Source of the DNA: Candidatus Woesebacteria bacterium RIFCSPHIGHO2_01_FULL_39_32
GTDB taxonomy: Bacteria > Patescibacteriota > Microgenomatia > UBA8517
DNA: 64,000 nucleotides
Assembly: GCA_001792345.1 (NCBI GenBank)
Contig: MGGJ01000001.1
Span: 48,486 to 112,485 of the forward strand
Direction of reading: 5' to 3'
Translations under genes and position numbers: made by a program
The notes under the pieces: generated by a model
What the model was told of the DNA's origin: nothing
The model's input: the letters and a program-made list of their open reading frames with translations, nothing else
Databases searched by the model: none
Part shown: positions 25,268-48,258 of the stretch, in pieces
Position numbering within the stretch: position 1 is the first letter of the stretch
Layout: every line of letters begins with the position of its first letter

Positions 25268-26452
25268 ATGACCAAGTTTAAGGCAGAAATTAAAAACAGA
25301 TTCTTCTTTTTAATAAGCTTGCTGTCTATTTTGACCTATCTTTTTTTACCGACAGTACAAGCTGATGAATTAGTGATTACAGATAATGGTTCCGGTTCTA
25401 CTAACGAAGTTCAAGTTCAATCCGAAAGTCAAACAAATATTAACCAAAACAATGAGAGCAATGTTACAAATGAAGTCAATACCTCTGTAAATACCGGCGA
25501 TAATTCTGCGTCTGGCAATACAAATGGGGATGTTGCTATTACAACTGGTGATAGTAACACTCAGATTACTATAGAAAATACCGCAAACACATCTACAGTT
25601 GAGACTCGATGTTGTACTTCTGGGACCACTGCACAAATTTCTGGCAATGGCGCTAATTCAACCAATCAGATTAATACTTCTTCTACTTCAACAACAAATA
25701 TCATAGTTTATCAGAATGCTACCATTACTAATAATATTACTGGATACGTAAATACTGGTAATAATAGCGCCGATGACAATGCTGGTGGGAATGTAGAAAT
25801 AACAACAGGGAACATAAAGGTTCAAGGAAATATTATAAACGGCCCAATAAACTATTCTAATATTGAAACCGCTTTCGGCCTTGCTAGTTTTGTGTCTAAG
25901 ATTTCAGATAATGGTACGAATTCTGAAAACAAAATAAATGTAAATTTTGATTACCAAAGAAACATTAACACCAATTTTAACGCGGATTTAGATAATTACG
26001 TTACATGGGACCTAAATACCGGAGGTAATTCTGCAGATGGAAATACTGAGGGTGATGTGACTATAAATACGGGAGATATATCGCTTGACTTCTTTATTAA
26101 AAATTTTGTAAATCTTGGAAAAGTAGAAGTATCTTGTTGTCCTACTAAAAAAGAGAAAGAGGAGGAAAAACCACCCCCCGGAGTACCACCATATGAAGAA
26201 GAAAAGGAAAATGGTGGGGTGAGTGGTGGAGTTGGTGGAGGCGGTGGCGGTGGTGGTGGCGGGGGAGGAGGTCAAATACTACCAGAAGCTGCAGCGGTAG
26301 AAGCGGGAGGACCAGGAATCGATGGATTATCTGTTACTTCCGGTAGTGGATTTCAATCTCTATTATTCTTCATCGGTCTTGCTATGGTCACATTTGGTGG
26401 TAAAATTGCTACCAATGAACTTTTCCAAAATACTTCAGAAAGGAAAAAGTAA
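25268..26452 (+). CDS. Secreted repeat protein 3 (paralogue; poly-Gly tract; LPEAA/LSVTSG segment, TM and basic tail at C-terminus)
   Basis: Signal peptide ..TVQA; repeats ISGNGANS...NTGNNSADDNAGGNVEITTGN; CC pairs; a 20-residue Gly tract; C-terminal hydrophobic helix plus ERKK. Confidence 0.65.
   Translation: MTKFKAEIKNRFFFLISLLSILTYLFLPTVQADELVITDNGSGSTNEVQVQSESQTNINQNNESNVTNEVNTSVNTGDNSASGNTNGDVAITTGDSNTQITIENTANTSTVETRCCTSGTTAQISGNGANSTNQINTSSTSTTNIIVYQNATITNNITGYVNTGNNSADDNAGGNVEITTGNIKVQGNIINGPINYSNIETAFGLASFVSKISDNGTNSENKINVNFDYQRNINTNFNADLDNYVTWDLNTGGNSADGNTEGDVTINTGDISLDFFIKNFVNLGKVEVSCCPTKKEKEEEKPPPGVPPYEEEKENGGVSGGVGGGGGGGGGGGGGQILPEAAAVEAGGPGIDGLSVTSGSGFQSLLFFIGLAMVTFGGKIATNELFQNTSERKK
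26211..26272 (+). repeat. GGN-codon homopolymeric Gly tract (low-complexity DNA, slippage-prone)
   Basis: ggtggaggcggtggcggtggtggtggcgggggaggagg encodes GGGGGGGGGGGGGG. Confidence 0.7.
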
Positions 26453-32622: not shown

Positions 32623-32847
32623 TTATCGTCCGTATATATCATCGTCTTCATCACCAAATCTTGGGGGCCATATGGAGCCCGGGAGATATTTAACAAGACC
32701 TTCAGGAGTTAATACGGTAGTTTCTTTCAGGCTAGGATCATTTGGATCACCGGGCAGCTTTAATTCTTTAAACATCTTCTCTCTCGTTGTAAACGGAAGA
32801 AGAATTGGCTTCGAATCAACTTCTTGCACAGGATTATATTTTACCAC
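32623..32847 (-). CDS. Hypothetical small protein (74 aa)
   Basis: ORF with non-repetitive composition, divergent from the rml genes; no motif. Confidence 0.25.
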   Translation of the reverse strand: MVKYNPVQEVDSKPILLPFTTREKMFKELKLPGDPNDPSLKETTVLTPEGLVKYLPGSIWPPRFGDEDDDIYGR

Positions 32848-32888
32848 TTATTGACTATAGTTTGGGGAATTTGGTATTATGCGGGTAT

Positions 32889-33618
32889 TGTGAAAGGTGT
32901 TGTACTTGCTGGAGGACTCGGAACCCGTCTTTATCCTCTTACTTACACCACGAATAAGCATTTACTTCCTATTTATGATCAGCCAATGATTTTTTACCCC
33001 ATTCGGACATTAGTAAAAGCAGGTATAAAGAGTGTCATGGTGGTGGTTAGTGGTCCCCATTCTGGTCAGTTCATACAAATTTTAAAAAATGGAAAAGAGT
33101 TGGGTTTAGAACATTTAGAATATGGTTATCAAGAAAATCCTATGGGCGGCTTGGCAGATGCTTTAAAAGTAGCGGAAGATTTCGCAGATGATGAATCGGT
33201 GACACTGATTCTCGGGGACAATACGACAGACGCTGATGTTTCAAAGGAAATTGCCTCATTTGAAAAAGGTTCAATAATGTTTCTCAAAAAAGTTTCCGAT
33301 CCGGAGCGTTTCGGAGTTCCGATATTCGACAGGAAAGAAAAGCAGAAGATTGTGGGCATCGTCGAAAAACCAAAAAAACCACCATCACAATATGTATCTA
33401 CCGGTTTATATGTTTTTGATAGTAGATGTTTTAACATCGCCAAAGGATTAAAACCATCAAAAAGAGGACAACTTGAAATTGTAGATGTCCAGGATTATTA
33501 CATTAAAGAAGGGACGATGAAGTGGTATGAATTAAAGGGCTATTGGCACGACGTTGGAACTTTTGATAGTCTTTTAGAAGCAAACAAATATTGGGCAAGT
33601 AAGTCGTTAAACCATTAA
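32889..33618 (+). CDS. rmlA: Glucose-1-phosphate thymidylyltransferase-like sugar nucleotidyltransferase (short form)
   Basis: KGVVLAGGLGTRLYPLT...LLPIYDQPMIFYPI; probable GTG start at 32889 (track start 32824 adds an implausible hydrophobic leader). Confidence 0.65.
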
Positions 33619-34625
33619 TGAAACTTCTAGTTACAGGTGGTGCAGGATTCATTGGATCGAATTTTATTCGTTACTGGTTGAAAAAATATCCTAACGATAA
33701 AATTGTTAATCTCGACAAGCTAACATACGCCGGACATCTGTCTTCAACCAAAGACTTTTCGGATAATCCCAAGTGTACATTTATAAAGGGCGATATTTGT
33801 AGCAGTGAACTGGTCCATGAAATCATGAAAGCTATCGATATCGTTGTCCACTTTGCAGCGGAGTCACACGTCGACCGTTCAATAGTAGGACCTGCAACCT
33901 TTGTAAAAACTAATATTTTAGGCACACAAGTCTTATTGGACGCAGCGGTTAAGAATAAAGTAAAAAGATTTCATCATGTCTCAACAGATGAAGTATTTGG
34001 GTCACTTCCATTAAATAGTAAAGCAAAGTTTTCTGAAAAGACAATTTATGATCCAAAGAGTCCGTATTCTGCTTCAAAAGCAGCATCCGATCATCTGGTT
34101 CGTGCTTATCACAATACTTATGGTTTGGATATTACGATAACTAACACCTCAAATAACTACGGTCCTTATCAAGACCCTGAAAAATTTCTGCCCCGAATGA
34201 TTACTAATTTAATTGACGATAAAGAAATTCCTATTTACGGTGACGGTAAATACGTTAGGGATTGGATTTATGTTGAAGATCACTGTAGAGCAATTGACAT
34301 TGTATTACAGAAAGCTAAGGTGGGTGAAACATATCTTGTGGGTGGGTTGACTAAGGATGTTAATAATTTGCAAATCGCTAAAAAGCTTCTGAAGATTTTT
34401 CGATATGATGAATCATATTTGAAGTTTGTAAAAGATAGGCCAGGACATGATAGAAGGTATGCTGTTAATTGGAGTAAAATAAAGCTAGAATTGGGGTGGA
34501 AACCAAAATACGATTTTGATACGTGGCTTGAAAGAACAGTAGAATGGTATAAATATAATGAGTGGTGGTGGAGACCGATTAAAAAGGAAGCGGAGAAATT
34601 ATATGCAAAAACTGGACAAAAATAA
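33618..34625 (+). CDS. rmlB: dTDP-glucose 4,6-dehydratase
   Basis: VTGGAGFIGSNF; YSASKAASD (YxxxK); 335 aa. Confidence 0.8.
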   Translation: MKLLVTGGAGFIGSNFIRYWLKKYPNDKIVNLDKLTYAGHLSSTKDFSDNPKCTFIKGDICSSELVHEIMKAIDIVVHFAAESHVDRSIVGPATFVKTNILGTQVLLDAAVKNKVKRFHHVSTDEVFGSLPLNSKAKFSEKTIYDPKSPYSASKAASDHLVRAYHNTYGLDITITNTSNNYGPYQDPEKFLPRMITNLIDDKEIPIYGDGKYVRDWIYVEDHCRAIDIVLQKAKVGETYLVGGLTKDVNNLQIAKKLLKIFRYDESYLKFVKDRPGHDRRYAVNWSKIKLELGWKPKYDFDTWLERTVEWYKYNEWWWRPIKKEAEKLYAKTGQK

Positions 34626-34627
34626 CT

Positions 34628-35170
34628 ATGGACCCTGATAAAATAACAGTTGAATGGTTACAAAATCAAGAAACAGTAGGTAAGTTTCAGGTACAAAATA
34701 TTTATAAACCTCCGACTATTGAAGGTGTAATTTTAAAAGAGTTAAATCCGTTAGTTGATGGTAGGGGTGATGTGATCGAACTTTGGAGTAAGCCTTGGGT
34801 TGAAAAGGAGGGTTTTGTAGTTCCAACACATTGTTATCAAAGCGCAACGGACTTCGGTGTTGTCAAATGTTGGCATCTTCATAAAATTCACACAGATCAA
34901 TTTACTGTTACTCGGGGTAAGTTACAAGTTTCATTAGTCGATATAAGAAAGGATTCAAAGACTTTTGGGCATGTAAATTTAGTTTTTTTGGGAGTTCAGC
35001 GACCCAGGCTTCTTAAAATTCCTCCAGGAATTATGCATGGATGGAAAGCTCTGACTAAACCCGAGGTTATTGTTGTTAATTTTCAGTCGCATGTTTATGA
35101 TGCAATGGATGAATATAAATTTCCCTGGAATTGTGTATTAGAAAATATTTGGGAACCGAAAAATGGATAA
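34628..35170 (+). CDS. rmlC: dTDP-4-dehydrorhamnose 3,5-epimerase (cupin)
   Basis: 180 aa; RmlC-like cupin; positioned between rmlB and rmlD. Confidence 0.6.
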   Translation: MDPDKITVEWLQNQETVGKFQVQNIYKPPTIEGVILKELNPLVDGRGDVIELWSKPWVEKEGFVVPTHCYQSATDFGVVKCWHLHKIHTDQFTVTRGKLQVSLVDIRKDSKTFGHVNLVFLGVQRPRLLKIPPGIMHGWKALTKPEVIVVNFQSHVYDAMDEYKFPWNCVLENIWEPKNG

Positions 35171-35173
35171 ACT

Positions 35174-36088
35174 ATGAAAGGATTAATTTTAGTTACCGGT
35201 TCTGAGGGCTTGGTTGGCTCCAGGTTTGTGGAGCTGTCCGAACTAAAAGATTCACTTCATTTGCCAAAAGAAGTTGAACTCGACATAACCGATAAGTCAG
35301 AACTGAAAGCAGTCTTTAGAAGTTTTGATTTCCGTGCTGTTGTTCATTTTGCGGCTTTTACTGATGTTGCTAAGGCCGAAGAGGAAAGAGGGGATAAATA
35401 TGGAGATTGCTGGCAGGTCAATGTGGAAGGGACAAGAAATCTAGTAGAAGCTGTTAAACCTCATAAGGCTAGAATTCATTTTATCCAGATTTCGACAGAC
35501 ATGGTCTTTTCGGGTAGTACCTGGGATCCTGGGGCGTATAAAGAGGATCATTCTCCTGAGAAAGATTCGAACAAAGTTTCATGGTATGGTTTTACAAAAG
35601 CAGAAGCTGAGCGGATAGTTCAAAGCACTTTAGGTGCATCCGCAACAGTTTTAAGAATTATTTACCCCGTACGTGCTAAGTTTGATAAAAAATTGGACTA
35701 TATTAGAAAGCCTTTACAACTATACGACGAAGGTAAACTATATCCAATGTTTACAGATCAACAAATATCAATAAGTTTTGTTGACGAAGTCAGTTTAGCG
35801 CTAGATAAAATTATAATAGAAGGATATAGGGGAATCTTCCATGCTGCTTCCCGCGATACTACAACTCCACATAAACTCCTAAGCTTTTGTTTAGAAAAGA
35901 CCCGCGGTATTAAAAATGCTGTAAAGCCAACCACCTTAAAGGAGTTTTTACAAAAAACCGAAGCATCAGCCCAACGTTACCCTAAATTTGGTGGTTTGAG
36001 AGTGGAAGAGACGGAGCAAAAACTAGGCATGAGGTTTAGTACTTGGAAACAGATAGTTGAAAAATTAGTAAATCAAGGTTTGGGGTGA
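35174..36088 (+). CDS. rmlD: dTDP-4-dehydrorhamnose reductase
   Basis: ILVTGSEGLVGS Rossmann motif; 304 aa; operon context. Confidence 0.65.
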   Translation: MKGLILVTGSEGLVGSRFVELSELKDSLHLPKEVELDITDKSELKAVFRSFDFRAVVHFAAFTDVAKAEEERGDKYGDCWQVNVEGTRNLVEAVKPHKARIHFIQISTDMVFSGSTWDPGAYKEDHSPEKDSNKVSWYGFTKAEAERIVQSTLGASATVLRIIYPVRAKFDKKLDYIRKPLQLYDEGKLYPMFTDQQISISFVDEVSLALDKIIIEGYRGIFHAASRDTTTPHKLLSFCLEKTRGIKNAVKPTTLKEFLQKTEASAQRYPKFGGLRVEETEQKLGMRFSTWKQIVEKLVNQGLG

Positions 36089-36128: not shown

Positions 36129-36157
36129 TTGAAATACTAAATATCCTCTAGTATAAT
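36129..36157 (+). promoter_or_regulatory. Sigma-70-like promoter TTGAAA-17-TATAAT
   Basis: ttgaaaTACTAAATATCCTCTAGtataat read directly; ~65 nt before the megaprotein ATG. Confidence 0.5.
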
Positions 36158-36224: not shown

Positions 36225-39200
36225 ATGCCCAAACTAGATGTAGTTATACCTGCTCATAACGAATCCGATAATATTATTGAATTATTGGTAAGGCTCGAAA
36301 GAGCGCTATTTAATGCTGGAATAAAATACAACATTTTTGTTGTTGATAATCGCTCTTCTGACGGAACTGATGAAAGGGTAAAAGAATACATAAATAGTTC
36401 GAATTCTTCGTCGATAAAACTCTTGTACAAAAAAGATAAACAGGGAAAGGCATATGCAATTCTGGAAGGTACACATTACGGTAAAGCGCCCTATATAGCC
36501 ATGATTGATGGAGATCTTCAGTATCCCCCGGAAGTGTTACCTGAGATGTTTAAACTTGTTAAAAAATTTGGGGTCGTTGTGGCAAACAGAAAAAAGAATG
36601 GTGCTGGATTTTTAAGAAAAATAGGCACCAGGCTTAACAGATACATCTTCGAGAAAAAACTTTTGGGTTTGAATTGTGATACGCAATCAGGCCTGAAGGT
36701 TTTTAAGCGAGAGATTATACGTTATTTACATGAGGCTGATGTAAAACCATGGTCTATAGATATGCCTCTCTTGGTTACCGCTAGGCGCCTTGGCTACAAA
36801 ATTGCAACCGTCGATATCGAATTTGCCAAGAGAAAATCAGGTTTATCAAAGGTTAGTTTTCTAAAAACAGGTTTTCAGATAGCGACAACTGCAATCTCAC
36901 TAAAACTTTCAGAAAAAAAACCATTTAAAGTATTACCCAAAAACGAACGTTCACCAATCGGAGCTGGGGTAGTTTACAAAGGTCGAAGGTTTACTACCCA
37001 CACAAACCTTCCATTCTCGGAGACTGCTTTGAAGACCCTTAATATTCGTCAGAAATTATTACTGGGTGCAGTAGTTTTACTACTAACTGCTGGTCTTTTT
37101 ATAAACGCGAAGGGTACCGTGATTATACTCATAGCACTTCTATCCGCACTGTATTTTTTGGATTTTATTTTTACAACTTTTATTCTTCTTAGGAGTTTGT
37201 CTAAGAATATCGAAATTAAATTTTCGAAAAAGTCATTGGGACAGTTAAATGACAAAAGTCTTCCCAAATACAGCATTTTGTGTCCGCTTTACAAAGAGGC
37301 TAACGTATTACCTGACTTTGTAAAAGCAATAAATAATTTAGACTGGCCAAAGGATAAGCTTGACGTTATTTTGCTCCTTGAAGAAAACGATAAAGAAACA
37401 CAAAAGGCTGCGGAAAACCTTTCCGATCAGAGTCATTTTAGAGTACTCGTGGTACCCCATTCTCTTCCTAAGACTAAACCTAAAGCTTGCAATTACGGTT
37501 TAGCGTTTGCAAAGGGAGAATATGTAGTTGTCTATGATGCAGAGGATAGACCCGATCCGATGCAACTGAAAAAAGCATACATTGGTTTTAAAAGATCCGC
37601 CTCAAAAGTCGTTTGTCTACAATCAAAACTGAATTACTACAATCCGGATCAAAATTTTTTAACAAAGCTTTTTACAGCAGAATATTCATTATGGTTTGAT
37701 TTGATCTTACCTGGACTTCAGTCGGTGAAAACCATAATCCCGCTTGGTGGGACAAGCAATCATTTTAAACTTTTCGTTTTAAGAGATTTAGGAGGTTGGG
37801 ACGCTTTTAATGTTACAGAGGATTGTGAATTGGGGACGCGCCTTTTTAGAAAGGGTTTTACAACGGCAATAATTGATTCTACGACTTATGAAGAAGCAAA
37901 TAGCAAGGTCAAAAGTTGGTTAAAACAACGTTCACGTTGGATTAAAGGGTATCTGCAAACTTATTTCGTTCACACAAGACATCCTCTTAGTTTTGTTGTT
38001 GATCATGGGGTCCAGGCATTTATATTCCAACTAGTTATTGGAATGCGGATGATCTTCATCATGATAAACCCCATTCTTTGGCTAGTTACTATTTCTTATT
38101 TTATGTTTAGGCCGACTCTTGGGTTAACAATTGAATCTTTATATCCAACACCAATTTTTTATATGGCGGTTTTTCCTATGATCTTTGGGAATTTTCTTTA
38201 CCTTTATAACTACATGATAGCCTTAGCAAAAAGAGAAAAGTGGTACCTAATAAAATACGTTTATTTAGTTCCTTTTTACTGGGTAATGGTGAGTTTTGCG
38301 TCATTTATCGCACTCTATCAGTTGATTGTTAAACCTCACTATTGGGAAAAGACAGAACATGGGTTTCATCTTGCACCAAAGAAAAAAGAATCTAAGTCAC
38401 CAGGGCTTGCTATTTCCTTATCTATTCCTTCCCTGCAAGAATCTTTTTTTGATTCGGTAAGAAATTTACTGAAGAAGGAAAACTTTGCTTTGGGAGCAAT
38501 TTTACTAATTATTTCTTCCGGTTTAGTAAATTTTATTGACTTTCTTTATAACGCGTATCTGGGAAGAAAATTAGAAATTGTGGAGTTTGGAAACGTAGCA
38601 CTCCTTGGAAATTTCATAACAATTGCTGGAATTTTAACAAGCGCCCTAATGAGAGTTACAACCCATAAGGCAAGTTACTTCTTTGGGAAACATAACGCTC
38701 CGGCCAAGGAATTTTGGAGAAGAATTAAGAAGTGGGTTTGGTTCGGATCTTTGGCAGCAACGTTTGTCTGGGTTATTTCTATCCCGTCATTAGGAAATTA
38801 TTTTAATATCGGTGGCTTAATGCAGTTTGTTCTCTTCACTCCGTTTTGGACAGTTGGTTTTCTGGCCGGACTAAATATAGGCTTTTTAGGAGGAAACTTT
38901 AAATTTAGTGTGATTGCATTAATTTCATTTGTTGAAGTACTTACAAAATTACTTATTGCTGTAGTTACAGTAGAAATGGGATATCCCTCACTCGTTTATA
39001 TTTCTTTACCAATCTCAGTAGTTATTGCGTTTTTCATTAGTTACATCGTCATTTCCAGGATGCAGGATGCGAAGGATTACAAAGATAAAGAAAGCGACCT
39101 AACTTTCCCGCGCGGATTTTTCCTTGCATCCTTACTAACCAATGTGTCGATAGTTGCCTTTTTATCAATCGATGTTGTACTTGCAAAACATTATCTTTCT

Positions 39201-40931
39201 CCCGTCGAGGCCGGGAATTATGCGCTTTTATCTTTGTCAGGGAAAATCATTTATTTTTTGGGCGGTCTTTTTATTCAGTTTGTAAATCCTCTTATTAGTA
39301 GACAGGAAGGTCAAGGAAGAGTATCCCGTAGAACTTTTTACCTTTTATTTATCAGTTCTTCGACTGTTAGCTTAATGGGTTATGTGGGAATTGGACTATT
39401 CGGTAAGGTAACGATGCCTCTACTTTTTGGAGATAAAGCTAATGCAATTCTTCCTATTCTGCCGTTATATGGACTTGGTATTGCCGCATATTCTATAGCT
39501 AGCTTTTTTACCATCTACCATCAAGTCAGAAAACACTATATTTTCTCGGTACTTGCAATTCTAGTTTCGGCTGCACAGATATTTTATATCGCTCTATTCC
39601 ATTCTTCTACCGAAATGATTGCTATGGTTACAACATTGACGGGAATAGGATTTCTAATCTACTCAATTATTCTTCACCTGTCATATAAGCAGTTAACTAG
39701 CATCTCGAATAACATTTTGGACTTCTTTGATCTCTTCGGTCCATCAGCTCCTATATCTTCGGATAAAATTAAAATCCTCATTTTCAACTGGAGGGACGTA
39801 AAACATGTTTGGGCCGGAGGGTCAGAAATTTATATTCACGAGATTGCAAAGCGTTGGGTCAGAAAAGGTCATCAGGTAACTCTATTTTGTGGAAATGACG
39901 GTAAAAACAAAAGAGAAGAAAAAGTTGCGGGAGTTAAAGTAATTAGAAGGGGTGGATTTTATACAGTCTATTTATGGGCTTTTTTATACTATATTTTTCG
40001 GTTTAGAAAAAAGTTTGGTGTAGTAATCGATTGTGAGAATGGGATACCCTTTTTCACTCCTTTATATGTGAAGGAACCGCATGTTTTATTAATGCATCAT
40101 GTACACAAAGATATTATTTTGAAGGAAATGAAACTTCCAAAATTGCTTCTTCCGGTCGCTTTTGTGACAAAGAAGCTTGAGGAAGTACTGATGCCAGTAT
40201 TGTATAGAAAGTCAAGGATTATAGCTGTTTCTAAATCTACGAAAGATGACTTAGAAAAAATTGGTTTGGGAACAAAGGAAAAAATATCCGTCGTAAACCC
40301 TGGTGTCGAATTGGAGAAATTCAAAGTTGGGAAGAAAACTGCCTACCCCTCAATCCTTTATTTGGGAAGATTAAAGCAATACAAGTCTATCGACACTATT
40401 ATTAAGGCAATGCCTACGGTTTTAGCCAAACATCCAAGTGCAATTCTACATATTGCAGGTTTTGGCGAAGCGTATAGATACTTAGAAAAGTTGGCACGAA
40501 AACTATTACCCGATAAAAGTTTCATGTTTTGGGGAAAAGTAAGCGATGGAGTTAGGGCAAAACTTATGAGTTCTTCCTGGGTATTTGTTTACCCTTCGAC
40601 AATGGAAGGTTGGGGAATTTCTGTAATTGAAGCAAATGCTTGCGGGACTCCTGTTGTGGCCTCAAATGTTCCGGGATTGCGTGACTCTGTAAAAAATCCA
40701 TCAAGCGGGTTTCTAGTTGCTCCGAAAAATAGCGACGAATTTGCAGAAAAAATAAATCTGATTCTCTCGGATATAAGGTTAAGGACTACTTTATCAAAAG
40801 AAAGTCTTAAATGGGCAACTGGATTCACTTGGGACAAAAGCGCCGAGGAATTTATGAAAGTTTTAATTGATACCATAGCTATTGGAGAGGGTTATTCGTT
40901 GATGCCGAATGCCAGTTTATCAAAACAGTGA
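36225..40931 (+). CDS. 1568-aa multidomain glycan-synthesis protein: GT2 (DPM1-like) - TM - GT2 (processive, QxxRW) - MOP/Wzx-like flippase - GT4
   Basis: aa 1-230: VVIPAHNESDNI, DGD (DxD); aa 340-600: DAEDRPD, TED, QRSRW (nt ~37926) flanked by TM helices; aa ~730-1130: >10 TM helices with AGNYALLSLSGK (Wzx G.Y motif); aa ~1150-1568: GT4 with EGWGISVIEANACGTPVVAS; continuous ORF, no internal stop. Confidence 0.7.
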   Translation: MPKLDVVIPAHNESDNIIELLVRLERALFNAGIKYNIFVVDNRSSDGTDERVKEYINSSNSSSIKLLYKKDKQGKAYAILEGTHYGKAPYIAMIDGDLQYPPEVLPEMFKLVKKFGVVVANRKKNGAGFLRKIGTRLNRYIFEKKLLGLNCDTQSGLKVFKREIIRYLHEADVKPWSIDMPLLVTARRLGYKIATVDIEFAKRKSGLSKVSFLKTGFQIATTAISLKLSEKKPFKVLPKNERSPIGAGVVYKGRRFTTHTNLPFSETALKTLNIRQKLLLGAVVLLLTAGLFINAKGTVIILIALLSALYFLDFIFTTFILLRSLSKNIEIKFSKKSLGQLNDKSLPKYSILCPLYKEANVLPDFVKAINNLDWPKDKLDVILLLEENDKETQKAAENLSDQSHFRVLVVPHSLPKTKPKACNYGLAFAKGEYVVVYDAEDRPDPMQLKKAYIGFKRSASKVVCLQSKLNYYNPDQNFLTKLFTAEYSLWFDLILPGLQSVKTIIPLGGTSNHFKLFVLRDLGGWDAFNVTEDCELGTRLFRKGFTTAIIDSTTYEEANSKVKSWLKQRSRWIKGYLQTYFVHTRHPLSFVVDHGVQAFIFQLVIGMRMIFIMINPILWLVTISYFMFRPTLGLTIESLYPTPIFYMAVFPMIFGNFLYLYNYMIALAKREKWYLIKYVYLVPFYWVMVSFASFIALYQLIVKPHYWEKTEHGFHLAPKKKESKSPGLAISLSIPSLQESFFDSVRNLLKKENFALGAILLIISSGLVNFIDFLYNAYLGRKLEIVEFGNVALLGNFITIAGILTSALMRVTTHKASYFFGKHNAPAKEFWRRIKKWVWFGSLAATFVWVISIPSLGNYFNIGGLMQFVLFTPFWTVGFLAGLNIGFLGGNFKFSVIALISFVEVLTKLLIAVVTVEMGYPSLVYISLPISVVIAFFISYIVISRMQDAKDYKDKESDLTFPRGFFLASLLTNVSIVAFLSIDVVLAKHYLSPVEAGNYALLSLSGKIIYFLGGLFIQFVNPLISRQEGQGRVSRRTFYLLFISSSTVSLMGYVGIGLFGKVTMPLLFGDKANAILPILPLYGLGIAAYSIASFFTIYHQVRKHYIFSVLAILVSAAQIFYIALFHSSTEMIAMVTTLTGIGFLIYSIILHLSYKQLTSISNNILDFFDLFGPSAPISSDKIKILIFNWRDVKHVWAGGSEIYIHEIAKRWVRKGHQVTLFCGNDGKNKREEKVAGVKVIRRGGFYTVYLWAFLYYIFRFRKKFGVVIDCENGIPFFTPLYVKEPHVLLMHHVHKDIILKEMKLPKLLLPVAFVTKKLEEVLMPVLYRKSRIIAVSKSTKDDLEKIGLGTKEKISVVNPGVELEKFKVGKKTAYPSILYLGRLKQYKSIDTIIKAMPTVLAKHPSAILHIAGFGEAYRYLEKLARKLLPDKSFMFWGKVSDGVRAKLMSSSWVFVYPSTMEGWGISVIEANACGTPVVASNVPGLRDSVKNPSSGFLVAPKNSDEFAEKINLILSDIRLRTTLSKESLKWATGFTWDKSAEEFMKVLIDTIAIGEGYSLMPNASLSKQ

Positions 40932-42048
40932 GAGTAAAAATATGAGAATTAAACCAAAGATTGTCATAAGCTCATACGACGATTTGAAAAACCCCTACTA
41001 TGCGGGAGGTGGAGCGCGTGCAATTCACTCGATAGCCAAAAGATTAATTAAAAAATATCGAGTTGTGATTGTAACTTCTAAATATCCAAGATCTAAGGAT
41101 GAAATTATTGACAATGTTAGATACAAAAGAATTGGAGTTTCCTGGGCAGGTCCTAAATTGGGACAATTAGTTTATCATCTCTTTTTGGTAAAAACGGTTC
41201 TTACTGAAGAATTTGATCTGTGGGCTGAAAGTTTTACTCCTCCCTTCTCGACAACTTTCCTGCCGTTATTCACAAAAAAACCTGTTGTTGGTCTTGTCCA
41301 TATGCTTTCTTCGGAGGATATGATAAGAAAGTATAAACTTCCTTTTAGCATTGTAGAAAACTTTGGACTTAGTTTTTATAAATATTTTATTGTTCTAAGT
41401 CGGGTTACTAGAAGAAAGATTTCAGATTCAAATCCAAAGGCACATTTTTTTGTAATACCTAATGGAGTTGATTTACCTAATCAGATTAAAGTTAAAAAAA
41501 GCAAAAGAGTACACATATTATTTATTGGTAGAATTGAGATAAATCAAAAGGGTTTGGATCTTCTGCTTAAATCTTTTAAGTTGATTTCAAGTAAGGTTAA
41601 GAAAAAGTTGGTTATAGCCGGAACTGGAACTACTAAGGAAATTCATGAGTTACGTGAATTGGTAAGTTCTCTTGATTTAACAAAAGATGTTGAGCTGGTT
41701 GGTCGTGTGCAAGGTAGAGAATGGGAAAAAGTATTGAAAGCTGCCTGGGTTGTTGTAATCCCATCTCGTTTTGAAACATTTCCGCTTGTTGCGCTTGAGG
41801 CCTTAGCGTACCAATCTCCGGTTGTATGTTTTGATATCGAAGGTTTAAAATGGTTGCCGAACACAGTTAGTTTAAAGGCAAAAAAGTTTAATACTAATCA
41901 ACTTGCAGAGTCAATTTTGAAGTTGTCTTCAAATTCAGCAGCCAGGAGGCGGTTATTGAAAGATACTTCGGAGTTTATTGCCCAACATTCGTGGAAAAAT
42001 GTTGCGACCAAGTACGACAATGCATTTCGATCAATCCTTTCAAGTTAA
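40909..42048 (+). CDS. Glycosyltransferase family 4 (GT-B)
   Basis: ETFPLVALEALAYQSPVVCFD (E-x7-E region); 379 aa. Confidence 0.65.
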   Translation: MPVYQNSESKNMRIKPKIVISSYDDLKNPYYAGGGARAIHSIAKRLIKKYRVVIVTSKYPRSKDEIIDNVRYKRIGVSWAGPKLGQLVYHLFLVKTVLTEEFDLWAESFTPPFSTTFLPLFTKKPVVGLVHMLSSEDMIRKYKLPFSIVENFGLSFYKYFIVLSRVTRRKISDSNPKAHFFVIPNGVDLPNQIKVKKSKRVHILFIGRIEINQKGLDLLLKSFKLISSKVKKKLVIAGTGTTKEIHELRELVSSLDLTKDVELVGRVQGREWEKVLKAAWVVVIPSRFETFPLVALEALAYQSPVVCFDIEGLKWLPNTVSLKAKKFNTNQLAESILKLSSNSAARRRLLKDTSEFIAQHSWKNVATKYDNAFRSILSS

Positions 42049-42052
42049 TATT

Positions 42053-42844
42053 ATGGAAAGAAAAAACTACAAGTTGTTAGAACAAATCGTCAGGAATAAA
42101 ATTCCTTGCTTATTTATCTCTCCTCATTTTGATGATGCGGCTTTAAGCTGCGGAGGGCTGATTTCGTATCTTTCAGATAAAACAAAGGTCGTAGTTGTTA
42201 ATGTTTTTACCGAGGCAAATGAGCCTCCTTATACACTTTCTACAAAAGTGTTTTTGGGAAGATGTGGTTATAAGAATGCTAAGAAACTGTTCGAGCAAAG
42301 AAAGTTAGAGGACTCACTAAGTTTTAAGAATTTAAAAGTTCAGATAATCAATCTAGGATTTGTCGACGCTTTATGGAGAAAAGATGCTAACGTTGGTTTA
42401 CTAATTAAATTTTTGGGGAGGTTTATCCCCGAAATAATCCATGTTTATAAAACAGGAAGACTGCATGTTTTAAAGGGAAAAGTATCGGAAAAGGACGATC
42501 AAATTATGTTGCAGATCAAGAAAAGAATATCAGACATAGTTAGGGGGGAAAACGCGGTCCTTTTTTTACCGCTTTCGATCGGTAATCATGTAGACCATGT
42601 CATTGTTAAAGATGTTTGTAGCCAATTAAATTTAACTAAAGTTTTCTGGTTAGATTACCCATACAGTCTGAAGTCTAAGGTGACAAATGGTTTTTGGGAT
42701 AAATATAAATTTAATACTCTAAGTTTTAACGAAAATCAGGACGATAGAATGAAACTTATTAAAGGATATAAAACTCAAATTTCCGGTTTATTTCCAGGTG
42801 GAAATATAAAGTTAGTTCCGGAAAAATATTTTTGGAAAGTTTAA
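42053..42844 (+). CDS. PIG-L/LmbE-family N-acetylglucosaminyl deacetylase
   Basis: CLFISPHFDDAALSCGG is the PIG-L signature; ATG at 42053 chosen (the track start at 41978 overlaps the preceding GT4). Confidence 0.65.
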   Translation: MERKNYKLLEQIVRNKIPCLFISPHFDDAALSCGGLISYLSDKTKVVVVNVFTEANEPPYTLSTKVFLGRCGYKNAKKLFEQRKLEDSLSFKNLKVQIINLGFVDALWRKDANVGLLIKFLGRFIPEIIHVYKTGRLHVLKGKVSEKDDQIMLQIKKRISDIVRGENAVLFLPLSIGNHVDHVIVKDVCSQLNLTKVFWLDYPYSLKSKVTNGFWDKYKFNTLSFNENQDDRMKLIKGYKTQISGLFPGGNIKLVPEKYFWKV

Positions 42845-43749
42845 TTAGTATGAATAAATCAAACAAACTATCAGTTATTGTAGCCATTCCGGCTTTTAAC
42901 GAGGAAGCTAACATTGTAAAACTCATTAAGTCGATAAGAATGCAGGATAGGAAATACTATGATTTGAGTGAATTCTGGATCTATTCCGACGGCAGTACCG
43001 ATAATACAGTTAGTTTAGTTCGAAAACATTTTAAAGACGTAAAAGTTTTTGATTTCAAAAAGAATATGGGGAAAAACAAAAGAGTAAACCAGATTTTAAG
43101 ATCATTTAAAGGTGATGTATTAATCCAAGTTGACGCAGATATAAAAATAATCCACAAAAATGTCATTGATAACTTAGTCAAACCCTTTTACGAAAACAGA
43201 AATCCAGGAATAGTATGTGCTTACCACTTAGCAAGTTTTCCTAACTCATTTGTTGAAAAGGTGGCTTACTTTGGTTTTTCCGTTTGGAACAGATCAAGAA
43301 ATTCCTTGGGAGAAAAAGGAATTAGATATTTCTGCGAAGGAGGCTTGCGAGCTTTTTCTAAAGATTTTACTAAAATCTTTAGATTACCTGAGGGAAAAGC
43401 TGCAGGAGAAGATTCGTACAGTTTCTATTTCGCGGCAACAAAAGGGTTTAATGTTGAGATTTCCAAAAATTCAAAAGTATATATCGACCTAGCTGGAAAT
43501 TTTCGGGATTACGTAAGGCAGATGAAACGTTTTCTGATACATCATGGTATGATGTTGGAATATTTTGACGCCAGAGTTATTAGAAAGTATGAGATCCTAA
43601 GTTTCTATCCAAAATTTACAGCACTCGTAGTCGAGCTTATCAAAACTCCCTTAATAGGGATTTTTTATCTTTTGCTCCAAGCTTTTGTTAAAGTTCAAAT
43701 GCCGTTTTATAAACCAAATATAAGTTGGGTGCCTGTAAAACGTAAATAA
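42832..43749 (+). CDS. Glycosyltransferase family 2
   Basis: LSVIVAIPAFNEEANI; DGSTDNT; DAD. Confidence 0.65.
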   Translation: MESLISMNKSNKLSVIVAIPAFNEEANIVKLIKSIRMQDRKYYDLSEFWIYSDGSTDNTVSLVRKHFKDVKVFDFKKNMGKNKRVNQILRSFKGDVLIQVDADIKIIHKNVIDNLVKPFYENRNPGIVCAYHLASFPNSFVEKVAYFGFSVWNRSRNSLGEKGIRYFCEGGLRAFSKDFTKIFRLPEGKAAGEDSYSFYFAATKGFNVEISKNSKVYIDLAGNFRDYVRQMKRFLIHHGMMLEYFDARVIRKYEILSFYPKFTALVVELIKTPLIGIFYLLLQAFVKVQMPFYKPNISWVPVKRK

Positions 43750-43751
43750 AC

Positions 43752-45107
43752 ATGATAAAACCTTTGTCGGTAAAAATTTTAATGTACTTACTTAATCAAG
43801 TATCCAAGGTGAAACTATTGAATAAAATTTCGCCCGAGCAATCGCATGACTTGGTGCTTTGTTATCATGATGTAGGGAATTCAAATTGGGAATTTATAGT
43901 GACAAAAAATAATTTTAAAAAGCAAATTAACTTTTTAGTTAAAAAGTTTAATGTTGTTGGTTTGAGAGAAATATTAAAGTCTAATAACTTGGGTAGAAAA
44001 CCTAGAGTTGCAATAACTTTTGACGATGGTTTATCGGGGGTTTATAAAAATGCGTTTCCGATTTTAGAAAAACTTGGAGTTCCTGCTACCGTATTTTTAA
44101 TTAGAGGAAATCTTGGGACTACTGGTTATATGCATATTACCCAAATAAAAAAACTTATTAAAAGCGGGTGGGAGATAGGTTATCATACTGCCTCTCATAA
44201 AGATCTCACTAAATTGACGGGGAATGCTTTAATAAAAGAAATCGGCGGTAAAAATATTTTAGAGAAAGAACTTGGAGTACAAATATCTTATTTCGCATAT
44301 CCTCACGGTAAATATAAAAATGAGACTGTTTCGATCGTTTCTAAATCTAACTTTTTGTTTGCTTTTACGACTAGTGGCAGGAAGGTTAGCCACCTAAAGA
44401 AATATAAATTTATACTAGGAAGAATAACAATTAGCAACTTTTTTAGTCAAGATAACTTTGAATCTTTGTTTACCACAACAGGTTTTATAATCAATCTAAT
44501 TTTTACTTATTTTTGGAGTTTGAAAGATAATTTCAACGATTTTACTCGTTATAATTTGAGAAATATTAAGAGAGATTTAATCTTAATTTATAAAGCTCCC
44601 ACTGGGTACTTTTTTAGCTTCTTGGAATCGACAACGGAGAAAGTTGGAATAGAAAACTATGATCCGAGATCAACACTAGTTGGAAGGAAAATTGTTCGTG
44701 ATATTAAAAAACATATACCAAATCTTAAGGTACATTTTCATGGATCTTCCGCTTTACAAATTCAAGGACAAAACGACATAGATTTACTGCTTGAAGGCAA
44801 GCTTGAGGAATTCGACAAGTTTTTACCAGAATTAACACAGCTATTTGGCAAACCAATAAAACGGGGAAAGAAATATATTGAATGGCATTTTAGAAGAGAG
44901 AAATATAAAGTTGAATTATTACTTATTGATCCGAAAAGTCGAATGTTCAAGGAGTTAATTACAGTCTATCTAGTTCTCAGATCTGATAAGAAATTATTGA
45001 AAGAATACGAACAGATAAAACTTAATTCGAACGGTTTGTCTCCAAGGGAATATCAAAAAAATAGGCTTGAATTTTATAACAAGTTATTGTCCGTAAAACT
45101 TTCCTAG
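43752..45107 (+). CDS. Fusion: CE4 polysaccharide deacetylase (NodB homology) plus C-terminal GrpB (UPF0157 nucleotidyltransferase-fold) domain
   Basis: VAITFDDGLSG and YHTASH (NodB motifs 1 and 3); C-terminal HFHGSSALQIQGQNDIDLLL matches the GrpB HxGSTAV..IDI pattern. Confidence 0.55.
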   Translation: MIKPLSVKILMYLLNQVSKVKLLNKISPEQSHDLVLCYHDVGNSNWEFIVTKNNFKKQINFLVKKFNVVGLREILKSNNLGRKPRVAITFDDGLSGVYKNAFPILEKLGVPATVFLIRGNLGTTGYMHITQIKKLIKSGWEIGYHTASHKDLTKLTGNALIKEIGGKNILEKELGVQISYFAYPHGKYKNETVSIVSKSNFLFAFTTSGRKVSHLKKYKFILGRITISNFFSQDNFESLFTTTGFIINLIFTYFWSLKDNFNDFTRYNLRNIKRDLILIYKAPTGYFFSFLESTTEKVGIENYDPRSTLVGRKIVRDIKKHIPNLKVHFHGSSALQIQGQNDIDLLLEGKLEEFDKFLPELTQLFGKPIKRGKKYIEWHFRREKYKVELLLIDPKSRMFKELITVYLVLRSDKKLLKEYEQIKLNSNGLSPREYQKNRLEFYNKLLSVKLS

Positions 45108-45115
45108 GTAATAAA

Positions 45116-46645
45116 ATGAAAAATTTTTTATTAATATTAACAGTTTTTATTTCTGCAATATTCCTTGTTGCTGCTATTCGTGGAATATCTGGGAGTCCGT
45201 CGGTGGATGATCTTAATAGTATCACTTGGAAAGAAAACGGTCCTTTTGAGCTTTCACCGGAGCGAGGAAGATTTGCGTTAACATATTCTTTAGTAGAAGA
45301 AAGATCTTTGAATTTCTCGACAGCTCTTGCCCGATTTGTAACACCTGATTTAGGGTATTGGGACGGTAAGTACGTTTCTCTTTTTGCGCCCGCAGTATCA
45401 TTTTTGGTAATTCCTGGTTATTTACTAGGAAAGTTTATTGGTATATCTCAAGTTGGATCTTTTTTCATAATTTCTTTGTTTGCCATTGCTAACTTTATTT
45501 TAATTGTAAAAATATCTGAAACATTAGGTGCAAATAACAGGGCTTCGGTGTTGGCTGGGCTAATTTTTCTTTTTGCAACACCATCCTTTGCTTACGCAAT
45601 AAATCTTTATCAACATCATATTTCTACTTTTCTTATACTTCTTTGTAGCTTTCTTTTAATCAAGAAAGACAAAAGTTGGTTACAACTTCTTATTGTATGG
45701 TTTCTAATTACTTTCTCCTTGGTTGTAGACTATCCTAACTTTTTCTTAATGTTTCCCTTAGGTTTAGCGGCTTTAATTAAAGTCTTAAAATTCAGACAAA
45801 CCACTAAGATCTATAAAATTTCCTTTAAATTTTCTTCTTTATTAAGCCTATCGAGTGCTTTCCTGCCATTAATTCTATTTGGCATATTTAACTTTTACTC
45901 ATACGGGAGCCCGTACAGATTGTCGGGAACTATAGCAAGCGTTTCTTCGATAGATTCAGGGGGAGAACCTATTTTTCCACTAGATATAAAAGAGACATTC
46001 GGTAACGACTTTCAAGGTAAAGGGGAATCAGCCTTGGGTTTTTTTAGGACAAGAAATATTGTGAACGGTCTATATGTACATTTATTAAGTCCGGATAGAG
46101 GAGTCGCTATCTTTTCCCCCGTTATTTTGTTTGGGATACTTGGAATATATTTTCTACATAAAAATAAATTTACTGTTTTATTTCTTAGTATTGTAGTTAT
46201 GAATATAATTCTCTATTCAATGTGGGGTGATCCATGGGGTGGATGGGCTTTTGGCTCTAGATATCTAATTCCAGGTTATGCGATTATGTCGATATTTATT
46301 TCAATTGCTCTTACTAAATTATCTAAGAACAAGACCCTTTTAATTTTTTTCAGTTTACTGCTTACCTACTCTATAGCAGTTAATACTCTGGGGGCGATCA
46401 CAACAAGCACCAACCCTCCGAAAATTCAAGCAATTCCGCTTCAAGATGTTACTGGAAAAATTGAAAGATACTCTTACGACAGAAATTGGGAGTATCTCAA
46501 TACATTTGGCTCTAAATCCTATGTCTTTCGAGAGTATGTTTCTTCCTATATTAATGCAAGGTCATATTATTTTGTATTAACAACACTTATCTCGGGGTTA
46601 TCGTTGGGGATAATACCTTTACTGTATTTGAGTAAAACAAAATAG
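45116..46645 (+). CDS. Polytopic membrane protein, putative glycan polymerase/GT-C-like
   Basis: 509 aa, ≥12 TM helices, glycan-locus context; family not assignable. Confidence 0.3.
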   Translation: MKNFLLILTVFISAIFLVAAIRGISGSPSVDDLNSITWKENGPFELSPERGRFALTYSLVEERSLNFSTALARFVTPDLGYWDGKYVSLFAPAVSFLVIPGYLLGKFIGISQVGSFFIISLFAIANFILIVKISETLGANNRASVLAGLIFLFATPSFAYAINLYQHHISTFLILLCSFLLIKKDKSWLQLLIVWFLITFSLVVDYPNFFLMFPLGLAALIKVLKFRQTTKIYKISFKFSSLLSLSSAFLPLILFGIFNFYSYGSPYRLSGTIASVSSIDSGGEPIFPLDIKETFGNDFQGKGESALGFFRTRNIVNGLYVHLLSPDRGVAIFSPVILFGILGIYFLHKNKFTVLFLSIVVMNIILYSMWGDPWGGWAFGSRYLIPGYAIMSIFISIALTKLSKNKTLLIFFSLLLTYSIAVNTLGAITTSTNPPKIQAIPLQDVTGKIERYSYDRNWEYLNTFGSKSYVFREYVSSYINARSYYFVLTTLISGLSLGIIPLLYLSKTK

Positions 46646-46647
46646 TT

Positions 46648-48252
46648 ATGGAAATTTCATTTTCAAAAAACAAAATAAGTAAACTTGCTTTACAATTAGA
46701 AAAAAAAGCCACCATTTTTATCTTTTGTTTTCTATCGTCCATTTCGATTATCTTCTTTTATGCTTACTATATAAACGGTTTGGGTTTAGCTTATAACGAT
46801 GCAAGATCCCACCTCGATATTGGAAGACGTGTTGTAGAGGGTTTAAAACCGGGCTTAGCTCAATTGGGTTCTGTATGGCTACCATTAAACCATGCTCTGA
46901 TGATTCCCACTATTTGGAATAACTGGATGTGGCATTCAGGCCTTGCCGGTGCGGTACAATCTATGATTTCCTTTGTAATAACAGGAGTAGTTGTATATAA
47001 ATTCTTAGAGAAACTTAATGTAGGTTTACTGGCTAGAGTTTTTGGAGTCTTGGTATTTATATTAAATTTAAACGTTTTATATCTTCAGTCGACTGCAATG
47101 ACTGAGCTACTTCTTTTATCAACAATGACTGCTGGGTGTTATTATTTGGTTCTCTGGGCAAAAAACGATGATCTGCTTTCTTTGATAAAATCTGCCCTTT
47201 TTATCATGCTTTCTACATTGGTACGCTACGATGGTTGGTTTTTACTTTTTGTTACAACGGCAATTGTAGCCTTTAATGTATTCAGAAAAAAAGGATACAA
47301 ACAGATGGAGGGTAAAGTGATTTTGTTTGTAACCCTAGGAGTTTTTGGAGTCGCTCTATGGTTTCTGTGGAATCTATTGATTTTCAACGACCCTTTATAT
47401 TTTGCACTAGGACCTTTTTCTGCCCACGCCCAGCAGTCGCAATTAAGTGAGGCAGGCGATTTACCGACAAAATTCAACTTACTACTATCCTTGAAGATTT
47501 ATGTTTATGCTTTACTTTACAATTCATATACTATTCCAGCCATACTTGGTGTAAGTGGGATGGTTTTATTCCTTTTAGATAAAAAAATTAAAAGGGAGAT
47601 TAGAATAGCCAGTCTTTCCTTGATAGCCCCTTTTGGATTTAATGTTCTTGCACTTTTTCTAGGTTTTTCTGTTCTCTTTGTGCAAGGTATATCAGGGAAT
47701 TCTTTGTTCAACGTTCGCTACGGTGTAATGCTCGCTCCATCAATTGCGATTTTTATCGGATATCTGGTAGATAAAGTAAAAAGCCTTAGAATTCCCCTTA
47801 TCGGATTAGCTTCCTTTATAATATTTTTTGCATTTGTGAATCAAGATGCGGTAACAATTGACGATGCCAGGGTTGGTTCAAGCCAAAAAAACGTTAGTGA
47901 AGTTTCGGGTTGGCTTAGTCAAAATACAAGCGATAAAGATGGTTTCGTTTTGATTTCCGCCGCAAGTCACGACGCTATAATTTTTTCTTCTGGTCTTCCA
48001 ATGAAAAAATTTATTCACGAAGGAACGGGTTTGTATTGGGAGAGCGCAACAACAGCTCCAGACAAGTGGGCTCGCTGGATAGTTTTACGTACATACGACG
48101 ACAATGATTTAACGTTTAGACTTATTAAAGATGCCCCCGGTTTCAAACGATTTGAATTAGTTGATAGCTATCCGTTTGCTGATATTTATCAATTGAAAGA
48201 AGAATACTTAGGCAATTTGAATACAAAACCTGTATTTTCTAATCAAAAGTAA
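46648..48252 (+). CDS. Polytopic membrane protein, putative GT-C (ArnT/PMT superfamily-like) glycosyltransferase
   Basis: 534 aa; first loop DARSHLDIGRRVV resembles the GT-C DExRY-type loop; many TM helices. Confidence 0.35.
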   Translation: MEISFSKNKISKLALQLEKKATIFIFCFLSSISIIFFYAYYINGLGLAYNDARSHLDIGRRVVEGLKPGLAQLGSVWLPLNHALMIPTIWNNWMWHSGLAGAVQSMISFVITGVVVYKFLEKLNVGLLARVFGVLVFILNLNVLYLQSTAMTELLLLSTMTAGCYYLVLWAKNDDLLSLIKSALFIMLSTLVRYDGWFLLFVTTAIVAFNVFRKKGYKQMEGKVILFVTLGVFGVALWFLWNLLIFNDPLYFALGPFSAHAQQSQLSEAGDLPTKFNLLLSLKIYVYALLYNSYTIPAILGVSGMVLFLLDKKIKREIRIASLSLIAPFGFNVLALFLGFSVLFVQGISGNSLFNVRYGVMLAPSIAIFIGYLVDKVKSLRIPLIGLASFIIFFAFVNQDAVTIDDARVGSSQKNVSEVSGWLSQNTSDKDGFVLISAASHDAIIFSSGLPMKKFIHEGTGLYWESATTAPDKWARWIVLRTYDDNDLTFRLIKDAPGFKRFELVDSYPFADIYQLKEEYLGNLNTKPVFSNQK

Positions 48253-48258
48253 TCTACT

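Follow-up and report, generated by a model that had tools for sequence, protein, structure and literature searches.

The window analysed here, a stretch of 64,000 nucleotides (nt) from Candidatus Woesebacteria bacterium RIFCSPHIGHO2_01_FULL_39_32 (contig MGGJ01000001.1, positions 48,486 to 112,485), carries on its forward strand a gene for a protein of 1568 amino acids (aa) that joins four glycan-assembly modules end to end. These are a glycosyltransferase of family GT2 of the polyprenyl-phosphate-sugar synthase type (GT2a), a membrane-embedded GT2 of the processive-synthase type (GT2b), a MOP-superfamily domain with 12 transmembrane (TM) helices and a GT4 glycosyltransferase. Judged on sequence, each module belongs to a known superfamily, none scores at the level of a characterised orthologue, and their combination is an uncharacterised, lineage-wide trait and not a one-off oddity. 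The envelope composition of the Candidate Phyla Radiation (CPR)/Patescibacteria is largely unknown and the organisms are mostly uncultivated; here four glycan-assembly steps are packed in one chain. The hypothesis that we prefer, and to which we give an even chance, is that the gene and its neighbours encode a two-track envelope-glycan machine in which a synthase-made polymer would be combined with flipped lipid-linked sugars used by enzymes of the GT-C fold. No description of the fusion or of its locus was found in literature searches on glycan and envelope enzymes of Microgenomates, Patescibacteria or CPR.

One gene with four modules

The gene lies at 36225..40931 (+), begins with ATG and encodes 1568 aa plus a stop codon, with no internal stop. 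An earlier note on this DNA had claimed such an uninterrupted open reading frame (ORF) and had named its four modules and their order; both claims hold, with Pfam matches to GT2, GT2 and GT4 and, ahead of the last of these, 12 hydrophobic helices at aa ~753-1169. The product is identical to OGM25276.1 (UniRef100_A0A1F8BL59), listed in the databases under no other names than 'hypothetical protein' and 'Glycosyltransferase 2-like domain-containing protein'. The same exact sequence stands under three NCBI accessions from three deposited metagenome-assembled genomes (MAGs), OGM25276.1, OGM37776.1 and OGM64807.1, and the identical protein is encoded on 13 contigs, the longest of 488 kb. Another Woesebacteria MAG has a 1568-aa copy with at least 90% identity (KKR30457.1), and an independent ENA contig encodes aa 1-1269, a segment that covers all three module junctions, with 100% identity. 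The four domains occur in the same order in 120 of the 120 best database clusters, whose named members are Microgenomates/CPR; 119 of them are full length (1513-1620 aa, 47-56% identity to the 1568-aa protein) and the remaining one is a fragment, P0001, 100% identical to it. That the long ORF was made out of ordinary separate genes by chimeric assembly, by a frameshift or by a stop that was missed, an idea that can appeal to the lineages in which separate genes encode the same modules, is virtually impossible in view of the identical deposits, the 13 contigs, the independent contig over the junctions, the four-domain best matches and the linkers, which vary yet stay in frame, and we dropped it. 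The junctions and the architecture in relatives, both of which the earlier note had advised to check, confirm one genuine membrane-protein gene.

The catalytic motifs of GT2a, GT2b and GT4 are invariant in 34 aligned homologues and, by motif, all four modules appear catalytically intact. The predicted topology is that of a single polytopic membrane protein whose soluble domains can all be cytoplasmic: the number of TM helices between each neighbouring pair of cytoplasmic domains is even, two helices separating GT2a from GT2b and the 12-TM MOP domain standing between a loop at aa 704-713 and the GT4.

The modules

The earlier note had described the modules as a Dol-P/Und-P-sugar-synthase-like GT2, a processive GT2 with D,D,D, TED and QRSRW motifs, a MOP/Wzx-type domain with a G.Y motif and a C-terminal GT4, and the profile, motif and structure comparisons agree with each of these descriptions. 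Module 1 (GT2a; 36225..36929, +; aa 1-235) has a GT-A domain of the polyprenyl-phosphate-sugar synthase type, akin to ArnC, DPMS and GtrB. Pfam places PF00535 (GT2) at aa 6-165 and, among PDB sequences, aa 2-214 come closest to the polyprenyl-phosphate glycosyltransferases ArnC (9hwj, 1e-15), the DPMS of P. furiosus (5mlz, 1e-14) and GtrB (5ekp, 6e-11). The DxD motif is D95-G-D97, with D95-x-D97 invariant in the 34 homologues, and an amphipathic C-terminal helix is found at about aa 210-235. With its GT-A domain, DxD motif and significant similarity the module can be assigned by sequence to the polyprenyl-phosphate-sugar-synthase type of GT2. The NCBIfam models for the ArnC type (PRK10714, 1.5e-20) and for AglJ (1.2e-15) are matched. 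The module stays far under every equivalog cutoff (PRK10714 73.5 bits versus 529, AglJ 57.7 versus 325, PgfS 64 versus 500) and is therefore a relative of ArnC, DPMS and GtrB and not a named orthologue. It shares with these enzymes the alignment over aa 2-214, the DxD motif and the amphipathic helix that follows, but has no GtrA-like or C-terminal TM domain of its own. The Clostridium relative carries such a domain, PF04138; Module 1 instead leads straight into the TM hairpin of the synthase.

The segment between the two GT2 modules (aa 236-276; 36930..37052, +) is 44% conserved, with the pattern GAGVxYKxxRFxTHT...SAL.T...Q. Since stand-alone synthase homologues start to align at ~aa 253-265, it is counted as the N-terminal part of the synthase module. 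Module 2 proper (GT2b; 37053..38369, +; aa 277-715) opens with a two-helix TM hairpin (aa 277-322), continues with the catalytic domain (aa 343-590) and with hydrophobic or interface helices (aa 596-702), and is closed by the invariant PHYWEKTEHG of aa 704-713. It is the most conserved of all modules (62% mean identity). PF13641/PF13632 (GT2) cover aa 347-621, and the motifs are D389, DAED 438-441 (D438, D441), TED 531-533 and QRSRW 568-572; D389, D438/D441, T531-E-D533 and Q568-RSR-W572 are invariant in the 34 homologues. KPKACN at 418-423 gives a K-x-K-A-x-N pattern at what we take to be the position of the HAKAGN motif of BcsA. Among solved structures in the PDB, BcsA is the best match of Module 2 (E. 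coli 7lby, 8e-18, aa 343-637; Rhodobacter 4hg6, 3e-7, aa 341-682), with residues 134-481 of RsBcsA covered, and the alignment to the PgaC_IcaA model takes in almost all of it (positions 27-393 of 407, TM parts included); the scores are far under the equivalog cutoffs (PgaC 95 bits versus 422, CelA 73 versus 699). The D, DxD, TED and QxxRW motifs, the flanking TM helices and the homology that extends into the membrane part point to a processive GT2. The module is thus like BcsA, PgaC and IcaA in its GT-A core with these motifs and in the TM helices on either side of the catalytic domain. Alignment offsets suggest that the invariant loop WEKTEH (aa 707-712), which would be cytoplasmic, may sit where the FxVTxK gating loop of BcsA would be. 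Module 2 differs from BcsA in having no PilZ domain and, by hydropathy, some four TM helices, apart from interface helices, versus 8, and from BcsA and PgaC in having other enzymes fused at both ends.

A variable linker (aa 716-752; 38370..38480, +), of 16% identity and corresponding to a true gene boundary in some lineages, leads to Module 3 (38481..39731, +; aa 753-1169), a 12-TM domain of the MOP superfamily that is PST/Wzx-like by sequence profile. Ten of 19 orthologous MOP segments match PF01943 (Polysacc_synt, PST/Wzx family) at E<=1, the best at 1.1e-10, and PF01943 or PF13440 is present as precomputed annotation on some full-length homologues. NCBIfam gave no significant match to the window segment alone, and a profile hidden Markov model (HMM) of the MOP segments gave 0 matches among PDB sequences; fold comparison alone succeeded. 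The AlphaFold model, built from 19 sequences (pLDDT 87.8, pTM 0.86), has 12 TM helices in two six-helix lobes with the N- and C-termini inside, and in structure comparison MATE proteins (25-29) and WzxE (26.9) are about level, both above MurJ (16.6-18.6). Together with the Pfam matches of the orthologues, the model and its comparison establish the MOP fold, and the outcome that the earlier note had named as refuting, a middle region that is not MOP-like, does not apply; the subfamily would be Wzx-like by profile (PST only), yet the structure does not set apart MATE. The G.Y motif is the invariant A996-G997-x-Y999 of TM8, and the helices also hold the invariant polar residues R781 (TM1), D983 and K988 (TM7), Y999 and K1007 (TM8) and H1151 (TM12). 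The lipid II flippases of the SpoVB/YtgP type of B. subtilis are PST members too; a role of Module 3 as the lipid II flippase of the cell is unlikely given its fusion partners. From Wzx flippases such as WzxE (PDB 9g95) the domain differs in being joined to a synthase N-terminally and to a GT4 C-terminally, and the window copy falls under the Pfam threshold.

A second poorly conserved linker (aa 1170-1182; both linkers 16-21%, as expected for inter-domain tethers) precedes Module 4 (GT4; 39771..40859, +; aa 1183-1545), which has the GT-B fold. PF13439 (9e-17) and PF00534 (8e-42) match at aa 1198-1528, and the motifs comprise an N-terminal GG at aa 1198-1199, R1382/K1387 and an EX7E pair, E1461...E1469, that is invariant in the 34 homologues. 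The two Pfam domains together with EX7E identify the module as a member of GT4, a family of retaining enzymes.

Distribution and fusion series

A Module 3 profile searched against 1.84 billion cluster representatives retrieved 5424 relatives, 485 of them at E<=1e-30. When the 121 best were typed with an HMM for each module, the MOP domain stood alone in 53, was fused to GT4 in 30 (MOP-GT4, ~800-840 aa) and to a generic GT2 in 12, and lay within GT2b-MOP-GT4 in 11 and within the full four-module fusion in 9. A scan for Module 2 in one genome per species found at least 596 genomes with a relative. Architecture was read for the best 80 loci only, in the ORF with Module 2: 31 such ORFs encode GT2b alone (those named are Chloroflexota, Actinomycetota, Bacillota and others), 15 the full fusion, 13 GT2a-GT2b, 10 GT2b-MOP-GT4 and six GT2a-GT2b-GT4 with the MOP domain missing. 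GT2a-GT2b and MOP-GT4 are adjoining separate genes in loci L017, L041, L047, L048 and L061; at the L017 junction the TAA of the first gene is followed by two codons and then by the ATG of the second. The MOP domain is cleanly absent in L025, L033, L034, L050 (9974-13435) and L051, which encode a GT2a-GT2b-GT4 protein of about 1150-1200 aa and keep the GT-C gene described below. No substitute flippase (GtrA or MOP) was found in the MOP-less locus L050, a result that speaks neither for nor against a flippase role. The idea that the MOP domain is an obligatory part of the synthase channel was rejected because the MOP-less GT2a-GT2b-GT4 and the two-gene forms exist.

The four-module protein is the end member, and the largest form, of a fusion series. 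The fused, partial and split forms indicate, by the Rosetta stone principle, that the modules belong to one shared pathway, and the series puts the cellulose-synthase-like polymerase in one context with the polyprenyl-sugar synthase, the putative Wzx-type flippase, the GT4 and a GT-C family that lacks annotation. Conservation of the gene extends over Woese-, Gottesman-, Davies-, Roizman-, Ames- and Dojkabacteria; informatively named records with the full fusion come from Woese-, Gottesman-, Davies-, Roizman- and Dojkabacteria and from 'Patescibacteria group' MAGs. The combination, which the earlier note had called highly unusual, is so only against characterised systems: in Microgenomates the architecture is usual (all 120 best clusters, 15 of the 80 best genomes) and is also met split or one module short. 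Loci syntenic with the Patescibacteria ones are present in TPA MAGs labelled uncultured Gammaproteobacteria, Bdellovibrionales or Pseudomonadales (L007, L008, L010, L011, L014 and others), labels that are probably wrong and due to mislabelled bins.

Gene neighbourhood

The fusion gene heads an array of packed or overlapping genes at 36225-49560. A gene of this array 4.2 kb downstream (45116..46645, +), in a co-location that is conserved, encodes a 509-aa polytopic membrane protein whose structure model has a GT-C fold like that of ArnT, Emb, PMT and OST proteins. It has no Pfam match, and a search of PDB sequences gave nothing meaningful. With the AF2 model (pLDDT 90.2, pTM 0.92) the top 23 Foldseek matches are all GT-C proteins, namely ArnT (5ezm, 7e-5), EmbA/B/C, Pmt4, AglB/OST, AftA/B/D, ALG3/9 and DPY19, at modest TM-scores of 0.41-0.47; UniProt independently names the protein 'RgtA/B/C/D-like'. 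Its first outside loop has the invariant residues E45, E49, R50, R52 and D78. The family is found downstream in 13 of the 15 full-fusion loci, in MOP-less loci and in most other Patescibacteria loci, and counts 1294 database matches (E<=0.001) at ~50% identity, those listed having no Pfam domain save one stray. The models suggest that it may be an unmodelled GT-C family and that the 509-aa protein is likely an extracytoplasmic user of flipped lipid-linked sugar.

The next gene (46648-48252, +) codes for a polytopic membrane protein of 534 aa with no Pfam or PDB sequence match. Its sequence matches A2715_04525 from Candidatus Woesebacteria bacterium RIFCSPHIGHO2_01_FULL_39_32 at 100% identity and has 1930 matches (E<=0.001), with 64-77% identity across Microgenomates and always annotated 'hypothetical'; neither the fusion protein (47-56%) nor the GT-C protein (~50%) comes near this degree of conservation. 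An hhalign comparison with the 509-aa family detected no relationship (probability 0.4%), so the 534-aa protein is not shown to be a GT-C enzyme. The last gene of the array (48259-49560, +) encodes a 433-aa protein that is anchored by a single N-terminal TM helix and has a soluble domain and a weak CarboxypepD_reg-like C-terminus, for which a search of PDB sequences gave nothing meaningful; it could be a hydrolase or processing enzyme of the cluster. Proteins that match the 534- and 433-aa ones in size follow each other in the same order in the P0017 and P0023 loci, the P0017 counterpart of the 433-aa protein having 423 aa. The locus offers functional hypotheses for two large unannotated membrane protein families, those of the 509- and 534-aa proteins.

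Between the fusion gene and the GT-C gene Pfam identifies, all on the forward strand, a GT4 paralogue (40909-42048), a PIG-L/LmbE-type de-N-acetylase (41978-42844), a GT2 (42832-43749) and a fusion of a CE4 polysaccharide deacetylase with GrpB (43752-45107). Most related loci repeat the GT4 paralogue and the short GT2 downstream. The CE4-GrpB protein is an odd pairing without a clear signal peptide, and the P0017 locus has CE4 alone (263 aa). Directly upstream of the fusion gene lie dTDP-L-rhamnose genes (32824..36088), assigned by Pfam as RmlA-like (32824-33618, +), RmlB-like (33618-34625, +), RmlC-like (34628-35170, +) and RmlD-like (35174-36088, +); the same genes flank the homologue in locus L001. 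The 136-nt gap that separates them from the fusion gene holds a sigma-70-like match, TTGAAA-17-TATAAT (11/12; 36129..36157, +), which outscores all other promoter-like matches between 32 and 51 kb and is suggestive only, the total count of matches being equal to chance.

Relation to known systems

The cultured bacterium Clostridium drakei (NZ_JIBU02000009.1, L080 7287-15675) has a Module 2 homologue with 43-47% identity in an operon that reads, in order, ManC-like nucleotidyltransferase, GT-C (weak PMT_2), GT2 fused to a GtrA/DPMS TM domain, synthase and BcsB-like protein. The BcsB-like partner implies that the Module 2 family behaves as a synthase-dependent polymerase, and the operon implies that a polyprenyl-sugar GT2, a flippase-type domain and a GT-C protein accompany the synthase outside CPR too. 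On sequence grounds, the MOP domain appears to take the place of the GtrA-type part in Microgenomates. The C. drakei operon may be a decorated-glucan or cellulose-like system and is a possible experimental proxy in a cultivable organism.

Wzx-family flippases act on C55-P-linked sugars and GT-C enzymes transfer on the acceptor side (PMC9574508). In S. pyogenes the components are GacI/J, GacK (Wzx) and GacL (GT-C); in L. lactis WpsA/B are followed by WpsC-F, WpsG (Wzx) and WpsI/J (GT-C) in a pathway that starts on C55-P and not on C55-PP, and CflA is of the GtrA family (PMC9574508). The Woesebacteria locus, too, encodes together the GtrB-like GT2, the putative flippase and the GT-C-fold protein expected of such three- or four-component extracytoplasmic glycosylation systems. 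It resembles GtrB/GtrA/GtrC, GacI-GacJ-GacK-GacL and WpsA/B-WpsG-WpsI/J in that a GT2 like GtrB or ArnC, a 12-TM putative flippase that is Wzx-like by profile and a GT-C protein are combined beside rhamnose genes. It differs from them in having the GT2 and the flippase in one polypeptide, with a synthase and a GT4, and in that its backbone would be synthase-made and not an ABC-transporter-dependent rhamnan; a GacJ-like activator was not identified among the ORFs examined, short ones excluded.

A two-track model and its alternatives

In the mechanism that we favour, GT2b would polymerise UDP-sugar into a beta-linked backbone and thread it through the membrane like other synthase-type GT2s. On the second track GT2a would charge polyprenyl phosphate with a sugar, which may then be lengthened on the cytoplasmic side, while still lipid-linked, by the GT4 module, by the array's own GT4 and GT2 enzymes and with dTDP-Rha; the fused MOP domain would flip the lipid-linked sugar, and the downstream GT-C protein(s) would attach the sugar outside the membrane to the polymer or to another envelope acceptor. 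Joining the modules in one chain would hold them at a fixed ratio and close to each other, in a genome that is tiny. By analogy, the scheme parallels GacI/J-GacK-GacL and especially WpsA/B...WpsI/J. Among the 40 window ORFs scanned no phosphoglycosyl transferase (PF02397 Bac_transf, PF00953 MraY/WecA) was found, which fits initiation by GT2a on a monophosphate carrier, and the two deacetylases of the array hint at GlcNAc-derived residues. The earlier proposal, by which the protein would couple initiation, elongation and export of a surface glycan, oversimplifies; the gene context favours two tracks that cooperate. The two-track model is a testable one for a major surface polymer of Microgenomates, and the protein is a single-polypeptide target for cryo-EM or for in vitro reconstitution of synthase-flippase cooperation.

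Several observations weigh against this mechanism. The window MOP segment alone is not significant in Pfam (PF01943 at E=2.5, 7.9 bits versus a cutoff of 28.2), although this match is co-linear. No BcsB- or PgaD-like partner was found among the window ORFs scanned and, with only ~4 TM helices in GT2b, polymer translocation by this module alone is putative at most. Six of the 80 loci are without MOP yet have the GT-C gene, so that physical coupling to the flippase is dispensable, and the commonest MOP fusion is MOP-GT4 (30 versus 9 full fusions), so that the substrate of the MOP domain may be the product of GT4 and not that of GT2a. A phosphoglycosyl transferase could also be encoded elsewhere in the genome.

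Some of these same facts can be read as a single lipid-linked track, similar to a Wzx/Wzy pathway or to the Wps system of Lactococcus, in which the three glycosyltransferases would act in turn on one polyprenyl-linked oligosaccharide, the MOP domain would flip it and the downstream membrane proteins would polymerise or ligate it; GT2b would then be a non-exporting transferase despite its synthase motifs. The predominance of MOP-GT4, the few TM helices of GT2b and the missing BcsB/PgaD partner agree with such a pathway, GT2a could prime a C55-P-sugar as WpsA does, and the two or three polytopic proteins downstream are a possible polymerase and ligase. We consider the single track possible though doubtful, as GT2b has the full set of D, DxD, TED and QxxRW framed by TM and interface helices, its alignment to BcsA and PgaC takes in the membrane part, its Clostridium homologue adjoins a BcsB-like gene and it is the most conserved of the modules. 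Neither Wzy_C nor Wzz (PCP) nor the LCP catalytic domain had a match among the 40 ORFs scanned and, with no phosphoglycosyl transferase either, a Wzx/Wzy pathway proper is not what the sequence of the locus suggests.

A hybrid of the synthase and flippase routes, in which the MOP domain packs on the few BcsA-like TM helices as a composite translocation site, extrusion of the backbone is physically coupled to the delivery of lipid-linked side-chain sugars and GT-C enzymes decorate the emerging polymer, is rather improbable. If true, it would be a way of assembling polysaccharides that has been described in no cultivated bacterium, and perhaps the principal route to the wall glycan in Microgenomates.

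The machinery could also glycosylate proteins, the acceptor being a surface protein (S-layer protein, pilin or sortase substrate) instead of a polysaccharide. The set of GT2a, flippase and GT-C protein matches the archaeal Agl (AglJ/AglR/AglS) and PMT-type systems, Module 1 matches the AglJ model, and the GT-C structure model resembles Pmt4, AglB and OST as well as ArnT. In the window locus a possible acceptor is at hand: 50 nt past the array begin the genes of a secreted protein with a sorting signal, rich in Ser, Thr and Pro, and of a sortase. We hold protein glycosylation to be distinctly unlikely: it leaves the synthase-type GT2b, the two deacetylases and the rhamnose genes unexplained, the AglJ match is far under its cutoff, and the type of acceptor is not readable from GT-C fold matches.

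A glycolipid route, by which GT2b and/or GT4 would glycosylate a membrane lipid such as diacylglycerol and the MOP domain would flip this glycolipid as anchor of a polymer like lipoteichoic acid, is highly improbable. A weak PF13506 (GT21) match of GT2b (aa 407-573, 3.7e-5) and the precedents of GT21-type and GT4 glycolipid synthases would favour it, as would the pairing of glycolipid synthase and flippase genes in Firmicutes (YpfP-LtaA); but the GT21 match is much weaker than those to BcsA and PgaC, LtaA is an MFS transporter and not a MOP protein, and no LtaS-like gene was found among the window ORFs scanned.

Other features of the window

The secreted protein next to the array has 213 aa and lies in the segment 49612-50834 (+). 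It has a Ser/Thr/Pro-rich stalk, TTPTLTPTPTSSTISSTS, and ends in a sorting signal composed of LAATG, a hydrophobic stretch and RKKDK; the sortase gene (PF04203) is the next one. The window has neither a tRNA nor an Rfam element. Four consecutive ORFs at 20266-26452 (+), of 255, 416, 769 and 394 aa, have no Pfam match at 1e-5, and a protein with a LytR_C domain at 10321 is the sole LytR-related finding among the 40 ORFs scanned.

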